Shown here: positions 7,634 to 21,721 of the stretch, piece after piece | Position numbering within the stretch: position 1 is the first letter of the stretch | Layout of the letters: the number at the start of each line of letters is the position of its first letter | Virus record (IMG/VR): IMGVR_UViG_3300045988_053025 | Strand: one strand, 5' to 3' | Length of the DNA stretch: 22,965 bases | From: a virus | Lineage: Duplodnaviria; Heunggongvirae; Uroviricota; Caudoviricetes | Notes under the pieces: generated by a model | Databases searched by the model: none | What the model was told of the DNA's origin: nothing | Seen by the model: only the letters and a program-made list of their open reading frames with translations | Program-made: the position numbers and the translations under genes

Positions 7634-8620
7634 ATGGCTGTTAAAGGCTTAACTGCGCTAACGCTGGCTGACTGGGGTAAGCGCGTCGATCCAAACGGGA
7701 AAGTCGATAAGATTATCGAGCTTCTCGGTCAAACTAACCCGATCCTTCAGGATATGCCCTTTGTCGAAGGGAACCTTCCTACCGGACACCGAACCACCAT
7801 TCGTTCTGGTTTACCTTCAGCTACCTGGCGTTTGCTGAACTATGGCGTACAGCCAAGCAAATCAACCACAGTGCAGGTAACCGATTACGTTGGCATGCTG
7901 GAAACCTATGCTGAAGTCGATAAGTCACTGGCTGATCTGAACGGCAATACCGCTGAATTCCGCCTGTCTGAAGACCGCGCATTTATTGAAGCGATGAATC
8001 AGCAGATGGCGCAGACGCTGTTTTATGGTGATTCCAGCGTTAACCCTCAGCAGTTTATGGGACTGTCCTCCCGCTATTCCAGCCTGTCTGCGGGTAATGC
8101 TCAGAACATCATTGATGCTGGTGGCACGGGTACAGATAACACCTCAATCTGGTTAGTGGTGTGGGGCGAAAACACCGTGCATGGCATCTTCCCGAAAGGG
8201 CAGAAGGCTGGCATCCAGATGGAAGATAAAGGCCAGGTGACACTGGAAGATGCTAATGGCGGCAAGTACGAAGGCTATCGCACCCATTACAAATGGGATA
8301 ACGGACTTGCTCTGCGTGACTGGCGTTATGTTGTTCGCATTGCAAACATCGATGTCAGCAATCTTTCAGAACCATCCTCTGCCGCAAATATTGCGAAGTT
8401 GATGGTTAAAGCACTACATCGCATTCCAAACCGTGGCATGGGCCGCCCGGTGTTCTACATGAACCGCACTGTAGGCCAGGCTCTTGATCTGCAATCTCTG
8501 GAGAAAACATCTCTGGCGATCAGCGTAAAAGAGACAGAAGGAGAGTGGTGGACTTCATTCCGTGGTGTACCAATCCGTGAAACTGATGCGCTTCTGGAAA
8601 CAGAAGCCCGCGTGGTGTAA
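7634..8620 (+). CDS. major capsid protein
   Basis: About 328 aa, directly after the scaffold gene. Start taken at ATG 7634, which has better spacing to GAGGA (7622-7626) than ATG 7628. Followed by a stem-loop. Confidence 0.7.
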   Translation: MAVKGLTALTLADWGKRVDPNGKVDKIIELLGQTNPILQDMPFVEGNLPTGHRTTIRSGLPSATWRLLNYGVQPSKSTTVQVTDYVGMLETYAEVDKSLADLNGNTAEFRLSEDRAFIEAMNQQMAQTLFYGDSSVNPQQFMGLSSRYSSLSAGNAQNIIDAGGTGTDNTSIWLVVWGENTVHGIFPKGQKAGIQMEDKGQVTLEDANGGKYEGYRTHYKWDNGLALRDWRYVVRIANIDVSNLSEPSSAANIAKLMVKALHRIPNRGMGRPVFYMNRTVGQALDLQSLEKTSLAISVKETEGEWWTSFRGVPIRETDALLETEARVV

Positions 8621-19993: not shown

Positions 19994-20425
19994 CTATTCA
20001 GGTATTTCAATTCCAAAACCATCTGCATCCCATGAGTTTTCACAGATGATGTAACCTAGTTCATTGAGCTTATTAAATGTTTTTTCAAAGATGATCTGGT
20101 AATCATTATCTGCAAGTGATTCCAGTTCAAGGTCATTAAGGTTTATATAAAAACTTGTATGTCCAAGTGTTATTTTCTTATTAATTTCATTAAAGGTTCT
20201 TTTGAAAATAATATTTGATATTTCATGTCGTGCATTGTTTGCAATGATTTTTGCTTCATAAGCAGAAATTACGTCATCTTCATGAATATCTTTCAGAAAG
20301 CTGGTGTCAAGACGTTGTACTATTTCAGCGTTCATTGATCGCTTATTGGCTTTTGCAGAAATTTCTATTTTTTCTTTTACTTCGACGGGAAGTCTGATCC
20401 TTAGTTGTGGATCTTCTCTGCTCAT
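19994..20425 (-). CDS. mnt: Mnt-like ribbon-helix-helix repressor with extended C-terminal domain
   Basis: From ATG 20425-20423 the N-terminus MSREDPQLRIRLPVEVKEKIEISAKANKRSMNAEIVQRL aligns well with the P22 Mnt N-terminus as I recall it (ARDDPHFNFRMPMEVREKLKFRAEANGRSMNSELLQIV). The protein is about 143 aa with a ~100-residue C-terminal extension of unknown function. Divergent from the arc-like gene. Confidence 0.6.
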   Translation of the reverse strand: MSREDPQLRIRLPVEVKEKIEISAKANKRSMNAEIVQRLDTSFLKDIHEDDVISAYEAKIIANNARHEISNIIFKRTFNEINKKITLGHTSFYINLNDLELESLADNDYQIIFEKTFNKLNELGYIICENSWDADGFGIEIPE

Positions 20426-20481
20426 GTTCTTCACCAAATATTGAGTTACTTGCAATGATTGAAGTATGCCTCACCGTGTGC

Positions 20482-20510
20482 TTGACATCAATGACGCACG
20501 GTGTGACAAT
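20482..20510 (+). promoter_or_regulatory. sigma70-type promoter for the arc-like/ant operon
   Basis: Perfect -35 TTGACA (20482-20487), 17-bp spacer, extended -10 TGtGACAAT (20502-20510). CACGGTG-type motifs flank and overlap it. Confidence 0.45.
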
Positions 20511-20516
20511 TATTTT

Positions 20517-20531
20517 GCCCCACGGTGGGGC
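20517..20531. promoter_or_regulatory. operator-like inverted repeat GCCCCAC-g-GTGGGGC
   Basis: 15-bp near-perfect palindrome between the putative -10 and the RBS (AAGGAG 20533-20538) of the arc-like gene. The 12-mer GCCCCACGGTGG recurs at 20723-20734. Confidence 0.45.
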
Positions 20532-20545
20532 TAAGGAGATATGAA

Positions 20546-20713
20546 ATGCAAAAAGCAAAAGAGATGTGTCAACGACGAGTTCGTTTTCCGGACGATGTGA
20601 AGTTAGCTATTGAAAGAAATGGCGAAAAAGAATGCCGAAAGTTCAATACAGAGATTATCTATCAGCTGAGGAAAGTGTATGGACTCACTGGTGAGAAGAA
20701 TAGCGTGGCATAA
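20546..20713 (+). CDS. arc: Arc-like ribbon-helix-helix repressor (55 aa)
   Basis: ATG 20546 with AAGGAG 7 nt upstream. The sequence RRVRFPDDVKLAIERNGEKECRKFNTEIIYQLRKVY resembles P22 Arc as I recall it. Small, directly upstream of the ant-like gene and divergent from the mnt-like gene. Confidence 0.55.
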   Translation: MQKAKEMCQRRVRFPDDVKLAIERNGEKECRKFNTEIIYQLRKVYGLTGEKNSVA

Positions 20714-20719
20714 AACAGC

Positions 20720-20752
20720 GAAGCCCCACGGTGGCCAGACCGTCAGGGCTTC
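20720..20752 (+). promoter_or_regulatory. second operator-like site inside a stem-loop between the arc-like and ant-like genes
   Basis: GAAGCCC (20720-20726) pairs with GGGCTTC (20746-20752), enclosing GCCCCACGGTGGCC, a repeat of the motif at 20517. Confidence 0.35.
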
Positions 20753-20785
20753 AGTATCGTAAAACTACGTATAGGAATTAACGAC

Positions 20786-21721
20786 ATGACGAGTATAGCA
20801 ACAGCAGTATCTACTATCAACGTGCCATTCCACGGCGCAGAGCTTTATGTTGTCAATCACAACGGCGAACCGTATACCCCAATGAAACCTATCGTTGAGG
20901 GAATGGGGCTAGACTGGAAATCTCAACATAAGAAGATTTCTCAACGCTTCTCGAAGGGTATGGTGGAAATCACCATACCTTCTGCCGGTGGGGTGCAAGC
21001 CATGATTTGTATGGCTTTACGAAAATTGGCAGCTTGGTTGAACAGCATCAGCCCTAACAAAGTCCGCCCTGAAATCCGCGACAAGGTAATCCAGTATCAG
21101 GAAGAGTGTGACGATGTGCTCTACGAGTACTGGACTAAAGGCCATGTGGTTAACCCACGCAAAGCTAAAAAGGCGTTGCCGGGTAAAATAACAACTGAAC
21201 AGCAGGAAGCCATTAAACAACTCGTCATGAGTCGCGGTCAGTCTCTGCCAAAAGAAAAACAGGCTAAGGCGATGATCACCATGTGGTCGTCACTGAAATC
21301 TCATTTTGGCTGTTCGTACAAAGAAATTGGTGAAGATCAATTTGCCGAAGCGTTGTCTCTTGTTGCTCGGGTTCCGCTTGAAGGGGAGTATCTCCCTGCT
21401 GGATCTGCATCAGAGAATGATGAAGTGGCAGTCAAGATGTTAGATGCGCTTCGTGAGGCAATTAAAACACAGACAAAATGTTATGGTTATCCATTGAAGC
21501 CAGGCTACCGCAGTCTGATTCATTCGCCGTCGGGTGTTCTCGGCCTGACGGAGAACTCACTGCTGATGAATCTGCTGAACCAGTTACAGGACGGGCACGA
21601 TGTATCGGGCGCGGCGGCGGAGCTGACCACCATGTTCTGCTACATCGTCGGTGTGAGCAAATGCCTGCGTGATATCCAGACGCACGCGGAATACATCAAC
21701 GACAAAGCAGGGTTCTTCTGA
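20786..21721 (+). CDS. ant: phage antirepressor (Ant-like)
   Basis: 311 aa; N-terminal VPFHGAELYVVNHNGEPYTPMKPIVEGMGLDW fits the antirepressor / Bro-N-type pattern as I recall it. Sits downstream of the arc-like gene in a P22 immI-like arrangement. Its 3' end is duplicated in inverted orientation at the right edge of the window. Confidence 0.6.
   Translation: MTSIATAVSTINVPFHGAELYVVNHNGEPYTPMKPIVEGMGLDWKSQHKKISQRFSKGMVEITIPSAGGVQAMICMALRKLAAWLNSISPNKVRPEIRDKVIQYQEECDDVLYEYWTKGHVVNPRKAKKALPGKITTEQQEAIKQLVMSRGQSLPKEKQAKAMITMWSSLKSHFGCSYKEIGEDQFAEALSLVARVPLEGEYLPAGSASENDEVAVKMLDALREAIKTQTKCYGYPLKPGYRSLIHSPSGVLGLTENSLLMNLLNQLQDGHDVSGAAAELTTMFCYIVGVSKCLRDIQTHAEYINDKAGFF

Follow-up and report, generated by a model that had tools for sequence, protein, structure and literature searches.

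The immI region of phage P22 is the textbook case of control by ribbon-helix-helix (RHH) repressors (Arc and Mnt) and an anti-repressor. It is made up of a divergent mnt gene, an arc-ant operon, the sar RNA and ant. The two promoters of this region, Pant and Pmnt (their positions, like those of the operators and of sar, are taken here from the BK000583 annotation), overlap almost completely and share a spacer, from which a single Arc operator governs the pair. RHH repressors, Arc and Mnt included, act as dimers of dimers on palindromic operators (the family is summarized in PMC3413123).

The stretch of phage DNA considered here (the window, 22,965 nucleotides at its full length) has the same sequence of elements as immI, and differs from it in its promoters and operators: the promoters stand back to back with overlapping -35 boxes, and the control region holds three CACGGTG sites where that of P22 has one. 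Judged from its sequence, the segment 20463-20531 can with good confidence be said to control an anti-repressor switch of the immI type (mnt / arc-ant) in an epsilon15/TL-2011b-like prophage; it would contain two divergent promoters and three operators of the Mnt type. The elements of the locus are these:

19994..20425, minus strand: mnt-like gene, 143 aa; N-terminal RHH domain with β-strand DPQLRIRLP; Pfam Arc, E = 1.1e-14
20463..20491, minus strand: putative leftward mnt promoter, read from the sequence; TTGATG (20491..20486), 17 nt, CATACT (20468..20463)
20468..20482, centre 20475: candidate operator S1, GCCTCACCGTGTGCT; directly 5' of the Pant -35 element and in the putative leftward mnt promoter, whose spacer it occupies
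20482..20510, plus strand: Pant-like promoter upstream of arc-like and ant; TTGACA, 17 nt, GACAAT, TG of an extended -10; 10/12 consensus matches
20493..20507, centre 20500: candidate operator S2, GACGCACGGTGTGAC; in the 17-nt Pant spacer, its GTG providing the TG of the extended -10
20517..20531, centre 20524: candidate operator S3, a perfect 15-bp palindrome, GCCCCACGGTGGGGC; at ~+1 to +15 of Pant; probable counterpart of P22 Omnt
20546..20713, plus strand: arc-like gene, 55 aa; β-strand CQRRVRFP
20717..20784, minus strand: sar antisense RNA, Rfam RF00262, 44.8 bits (gathering score 43); directly upstream of the ant ATG (20786)
20786..21721, plus strand: ant (antirepressor), the regulated target; Pfam P22_AR_N, E = 6e-45
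20792..20820, minus strand: Psar-like promoter, TTGATA, 17 nt, TATACT, TG; inside the start of ant, as in P22

S1, S2 and S3 are 15-bp sites of the form G-N-C-N-CAC-S-GTG-N-G-N-C, lying between the leftward mnt-like gene and the rightward arc-like/ant operon, with centre-to-centre distances of 25 bp (S1-S2) and 24 bp (S2-S3) that place neighbouring sites on different helical faces. Common to the three are G at -7, C at -5, the CAC-S-GTG core and G at +5; S1 and S2 have the 7-bp core together with the C at -5 and G at -7, and S3 has the 9-bp core of the P22 site, CCACGGTGG. Between 20440 and 20545 the sequence has no other repeat or palindrome. Very probably S1-S3 are repressor-binding sites that control a prophage anti-repressor switch.

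An exact search of the whole window places CACGGTG at 1437(+), 3599(+), 8173(-), 20472(-), 20497(+), 20521(+) and 20727(+). The coordinates that a sequence-only reading of this DNA had given for the motif are all correct, the copy at 8173 being one that it had not listed. Since the heptamer is palindromic except for its central base (CACSGTG), the 'orientation' of a copy refers to that base only; the copy at 20472 is CACCGTG and differs solely at its centre. The same reading had assigned the four clustered copies to the promoter and to the junction of the arc-like and ant genes, and these placements hold: the first heptamer ends 4 nt before TTGACA (20482-20487), the second is inside the 17-nt spacer ahead of GACAAT (20505-20510), the third is the centre of the perfect palindrome at 20517-20531, and the fourth is inside a hairpin between the two genes. 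(Aligned in register, copy 1 reads GCCTCACCGTGT, copy 2 GACGCACGGTGT, and copies 3 and 4 both GCCCCACGGTGG.) Comparison of motif frequency with shuffled sequence, which had been proposed as a check, gives a divided answer: the clustering is far beyond chance, and the whole-window count is marginal (7 observed vs 2.66 expected, a total reached in 1/100 shuffles and thus mildly unusual). The cluster statistics were computed locally because the signal resides in the clustering. The three heptamers of S1-S3 fall inside 56 bp. In 3000 first-order Markov simulations a group of three copies within 60 bp arose in a single case and a group of four within 262 bp in none. By the Poisson expectation, a window has ~5e-5 clusters of the former kind and ~1e-5 of the latter. 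The tight group of three is not due to chance. On the other hand, the copies at 1437 and 3599, whose relation to the cluster that reading had left undecided, do not belong to it: they, and the copy at 8173, are without the flanks common to S1-S3 (C at -5, G at -7), and three copies in ~22.7 kb is the chance expectation, so that they represent background.

Comparison with P22 specifies the likely nature of these sites. Written in the orientation of the window, the P22 sequence is TTGACA-tgatagaagcactctac-TATATT-ctcaat-AGGTCCACGGTGGACCT, in which AGGTCCACGGTGGACCT is Omnt, and the equivalent in the window is TTGACA-tcaatgacgcacggtgt-GACAAT-tatttt-GCCCCACGGTGGGGC. S3 can be taken as the Omnt counterpart because the 9-bp core is identical and the offset from the -35 element nearly equal (the centre is at 43 in P22 and at 42 here). 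The outer operator positions differ (GGTC in P22, GCCC in the window), as do the DNA-reading residues, which are H-N-R in P22 Mnt and Q-R-R in the Mnt-like protein. S2 resembles P22 Oarc in lying in the Pant spacer, 24-25 bp from a Mnt-type site (the Oarc and Omnt centres are 25 bp apart, those of S2 and S3 24 bp), and in both phages a small Arc-like RHH protein is encoded first in the operon. In contrast, the TAGA-type half-sites of Oarc are absent from S2, which is of the Omnt type, like S1 and S3. The Pant spacer of the window, which is occupied by GACGCACGGTGTGAC, contains no 21-bp site with inverted TAGA-type half-sites; position alone matches. An S1 counterpart was not found at the equivalent position of the P22 sequence. 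Instead of the single Arc operator of P22, the window has a candidate spacer operator for each promoter.

The Pant-like promoter occupies the position of the P22 arc/ant promoter. The -35 element of the putative leftward promoter overlaps that of Pant by 2 bp (TTGACATCAA); a consensus promoter scan of the window did not call this leftward promoter.

The solved structure of P22 Mnt (1mnt) is the closest sequence relative of the N-terminal domain of the mnt-like protein (E = 3.5e-7; the alignment begins at the β-strand and includes helix B), and 262 homologues of the protein are found across Enterobacterales, Yersinia pestis included. Where P22 Mnt ends in a short tetramerisation tail, the 143-residue protein has an unrelated C-terminal domain of ~90 aa (residues 55-143; window 19994-20260), modelled at a pLDDT of ~90 as a long helix followed by β-α-β-β. 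A Pfam search assigns this domain to no family and a fold search with the structure model gives no significant PDB match; the domain is conserved in the 262 homologues, and a guess would be that it mediates oligomerisation. For the 55-residue arc-like protein, a Pfam search was without match and comparison of the sequence with the PDB gave spurious TALE-repeat matches only, so that profile-profile comparison was needed. A profile of 27 orthologues is in register with the Arc/Mnt profile (hhalign probability 92%, E = 6e-7), and this places the protein in the RHH superfamily. Its β-strand is QRRVR where that of P22 Arc is QFNLR.

Over the control region the window is 95.7% identical to Escherichia phage TL-2011b, in which the counterpart of the arc-like protein is annotated as 'Arc-like repressor', and the full control region is present in 38/5426 complete E. 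coli genomes. The TL-2011b sequence (L001, NC_019445, 3095-3436) has one extra base in the mnt-like gene, among the codons for the β-strand (CTGATCCCTTAG vs CTGAT-CCTTAG), at a place corresponding to window ~20409-20410 (codons 5-6). The extra base shifts the reading frame, and the one product that RefSeq annotates is 113 aa long and truncated at its N-terminus; this repressor may thus be missing from the free phage that was sequenced. A tRNA-Arg gene (anticodon TCT) is located at window 4224-4300 on the minus strand, within the phage late region.

The layout of three operators is retained in relatives of the window. The E. coli prophages L004 and L005 keep S1-S3; in L005 the centre of S3 has changed from G to C, with the palindrome retained. 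Three Xenorhabdus prophages (L009, L010 and L029) are more distant. They encode a Mnt-like protein that is 58-60% identical and has the same β-strand, DPQLRIRLP, an Arc-like protein (YQRKIRFP) and an anti-repressor, and they have a sar-like hairpin. Their leader, from the mnt start codon to site 1, is unrelated in sequence to that of the window, and three CACSGTG sites are found at the same places with spacings of 25 and 26 bp. (In these phages it is S1, not S3, that is perfectly palindromic; the flank types of S1 and S3 are swapped.) A phage contig from the human gut (L037, MT836498) encodes full-length Mnt-like (QFKLR) and Arc-like (QFNLR) proteins and has three sites of the GGACCACSGTGGTCC type, 26 and 26 bp apart. 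Thus, the sites stand at fixed positions in diverged relatives despite unrelated surrounding non-coding DNA.

Two pattern scans of IMG/VR, in which CACSGTG had to occur three times with gaps of 15-20 bp and which each matched at least 120 stretches, yield, together with loci derived from the proteins, at least 58 distinct phage and prophage arrays with one common layout; ~40 tandem coding repeats and ~39 further single matches without the TTGAC layout were set aside. The invariance of CACSGTG among these arrays is by construction, since the search pattern demanded three copies, and only the flanks and the layout are informative. Among the arrays listed, the S1 centre is exactly 7 nt 5' of TTGAC in 58/58, and in all 58 a TTGNNG on the opposite strand overlaps the Pant -35 element by 2 bp. 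A leftward CATAAT-like -10 element, at 17 nt and directly 5' of S1, is present in ~52 to 56 of the 58 listed (the 17-nt distance itself in 56/58), and the TG of an extended -10, supplied by the GTG of S2, in most of them. Spacing in the listed arrays is 25 or 26 bp for S1-S2 and 23-27 bp for S2-S3, and the S2 sequence TGACGCACGGTGTGACA is identical in nearly all listed arrays of the window type. A Mnt-like RHH gene diverges on the left in at least 54 of the 58 listed; the right-hand gene is an Arc-like RHH gene in most. The window agrees with this layout throughout (S1 offset, spacings, leftward -10, Mnt-like gene on the left).

In loci of the Pf type all three sites are kept, but the right-hand gene encodes an XisF-type excisionase and is not arc, so that three sites can be accounted for by the Mnt-like protein alone. 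The Pf-like filamentous phage contigs concerned (L040, L048, L112 and L126 from IMG/VR, and Pseudomonas phage PfAC03, L036) have the module with GGACCAC-type flanks, between a repressor of the RHH-plus-C-terminal-domain kind and the XisF-type excisionase. This suggests that the three-operator module is the immunity switch of this Pf sub-group. In some Pf prophages the usual repressor is replaced by an uncharacterised gene of the Arc family (PMC7549136).

Several loci show variants of the arrangement. At loci of the GGACC class (MT836498, for example) the putative leftward -10 element, CATCAT, is only ~7 nt from the mnt ATG, where the window has a leader of ~30 nt; this proximity implies that the mnt mRNA of that class is leaderless or nearly so. 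A prophage of E. coli PSJ-36 (L006, 770-860) has a different Arc-family pair, and at the equivalent place between its mnt and arc genes lie three CAAAG(G)TG-like sites; on this example the layout of three sites may extend beyond the CACSGTG class. Cronobacter phage ES2 (L035) and Acinetobacter phage qsb1 (L038) have QINIR β-strands and TAAC-S-GTTA or TCACCGTTA sites, which have only the central AC-S-GT in common with the operators of the window.

The bases flanking the core vary among loci, and they do so with the β-strand of the Mnt-like protein. At flank positions -7 to -4 of half-sites left unconstrained by the search, agreement is 2.85/4 within a locus and 1.64/4 between loci that differ in this β-strand. 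The flank classes partition cleanly:

Mnt-like β-strand Q[L/F]RIR: flank [C/A/T]C[C/G/T]-CAC (QLRIR with C at -5)
Mnt-like β-strand QFKLR: flank GA[C/T]-CAC (GGAC/GGAT)
Mnt-like β-strand Q[L/M]K[L/I]R: flank AAC-CAC
Mnt-like β-strand QLRVR: flank CT-CAC
Mnt-like β-strand QVNFR: flank AAG-CAC
P22 Mnt, HFNFR: flank GTC-CAC

In particular, the base at -5 tracks the middle DNA-facing residue, with C (G on the other strand) accompanying Arg and A accompanying Lys. (What this amounts to is ~5-6 independent events and not 58, because the flank classes are clades of related sequences, and the core is fixed by the search pattern.) The co-variation is the strongest indirect evidence for a reading of all three sites by the Mnt-like protein.

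The switch might operate in the following way. Two back-to-back divergent σ70 promoters would direct transcription rightward through arc-like and ant (Pant) and leftward through mnt-like (putative Pmnt). S1 would lie in the Pmnt spacer, S2 on the Pant spacer and extended -10, and S3 over the Pant transcription start; each can be thought of as a variant of the P22 Mnt operator, most likely bound by a dimer of dimers of the Mnt-like repressor. With S2 and S3 occupied, RNA polymerase would be shut out of Pant and ant would stay silent in the lysogen; repressor on S3 would lie over the start site, a place that Mnt also occupies in P22. Repressor on S1 would overlie the spacer of the leftward promoter and make mnt autoregulated. 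The MetJ met-boxes, CopG, ParG and omega offer a comparison, in that several RHH dimers also sit on repeated short sites over a promoter (summarized in PMC3413123). However, those arrays consist of contiguous repeats 7-11 bp apart, whereas the sites here are separate 15-bp palindromes 24-26 bp apart, each on a promoter element. Spacings that are off-phase in this way, and an S2-S3 distance that ranges over 23-27 bp, do not readily fit a simple, rigid cooperativity on one face of the helix.

The fourth heptamer copy has a different context. The sar RNA of the window is like that of P22 in its promoter, its length and its position antisense to the ant ribosome-binding site, and its covariance score is above the gathering score of RF00262. 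It folds at -24.9 kcal/mol (z = -2.7), and its terminator hairpin (plus strand 20720-20752), which is followed by GCUGUUUU, contains copy 4 (20727-20733). The upper stem is ACGGT/ACCGT in the window and ACTG/CAGT in P22; this difference and one polymorphic base account for the occurrence of the heptamer in sar.

It had been proposed from the sequence that the clustered heptamers are candidate operators of RHH repressors. For S1-S3 this is upheld by the correspondence with P22 Omnt, the conserved positions and the flank co-variation; the proposal fails at site 4, which lies in the sar terminator stem. If all four copies were operators, the one at the arc-ant junction might block read-through into ant or loop to S3, and it does have a 12-bp exact repeat, GCCCCACGGTGG, in common with S3, and a perfect left half-site. 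The conserved G at +5 and C at +7 are nevertheless missing from its right half. Among 26 close loci listed that have the same S3, 9 read CAACGGTG at site 4, which is also the reading in E. coli prophages L004 and L005; C is found in 17 and A in 9, and in the folded RNA this polymorphism merely turns a U-U mismatch into a G-U pair. A near-identical hairpin, GAAGCCCAACGGTGGCTAGACCGTCAGGGCTTC, stands in L008 beside a LexA-family repressor and an unrelated small protein, with no RHH pair; the Xenorhabdus sar-like hairpins are without CACSGTG; and only 3 of the 58 arrays listed have any further CACSGTG within 450 bp downstream. A fourth operator is accordingly improbable. Site 4, lying in a terminator stem and differing among relatives, is explained by the sar hairpin, and on present evidence is a part of that hairpin and not an operator. 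Still less probable is a role of the palindromes mainly as RNA, with S3 forming a hairpin at the 5' end of the arc-ant mRNA and affecting stability or translation. S3, a perfect inverted repeat, does start at ~+1 of Pant, but such a role is closed to S1 and S2, which precede the start, a 7+7 palindrome with a single central base makes a stem of only ~6 bp, the homologous P22 site is annotated as protein-binding, and changes in the flanks follow the protein β-strand. That the sites cluster by chance, or are shared promoter elements that bind no repressor, is hardly credible: the GTG of S2 serves also as the TG of the extended -10 and the window-wide heptamer count is just modestly high, yet the probability of the cluster is ~1e-5 to 3e-4, S1 and S3 are off the positions of the Pant promoter elements, and the three sites keep their flanks in diverged phages in which the intervening DNA is different.

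Which of the two repressors uses the operators is a closer question. Reading by the Mnt-like protein alone, with the Arc-like protein recognizing something else, as P22 Arc does with its TAGA-type operator, would accommodate the co-variation of the flanks with the Mnt-like β-strand and the three sites of Pf-type loci that lack arc. It would also fit the Arc-like protein itself, whose middle DNA-facing residue is Lys in most relatives and Arg in the window while the operators, S2 included, are unchanged. On the other hand, the segment 20440-20545 offers no alternative repeat or palindrome for a separate Arc-like specificity, and the DNA-facing triad of the Arc-like protein agrees with that of its Mnt-like partner, being Q-R-R for both in the window and Q-K-R for both in the GGACC class. 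Exclusive use by the Mnt-like protein is on balance a doubtful but quite possible reading. Shared operators for the Arc-like and Mnt-like proteins are favoured because the triads are equal and the region has no other repeat; confidence in this sharing is low, because the middle residue of the Arc-like protein varies (K or R) against a constant S2.

RHH operators of the immI switch are known. What seems to be new is the set of three Omnt-type operators, the back-to-back promoters, the length of the Mnt-like repressor and an Arc-like protein that has the DNA-reading residues of that repressor; no description of a three-operator variant of the control region was found in the searchable literature. 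For this locus the outcome is an annotation that comprises, as predicted elements, three operators, two promoters and one antisense RNA. Tentatively, the layout could be a widespread and undescribed design of anti-repressor and excision switches, distributed among Enterobacterales podovirus-type and other prophages and Pf-like inoviruses, in which paralogous Mnt-like and Arc-like proteins might share one operator set, unlike those of P22, and the middle residue of the β-strand might read position ±5 (Arg with C:G, Lys with A:T, Asn with T or A). The window suggests that the P22 plan, with one Mnt site, a distinct Arc site and fully overlapping promoters, is one variant among others; the relatives sampled have three candidate operators of the Mnt type, each on its own element of two back-to-back promoters. 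The matched variants of β-strand and operator flank constitute a natural data set on how RHH β-strands read DNA, and the series may provide a way to predict the immunity groups of prophages with such modules, the Pf-like prophages of Pseudomonas included.
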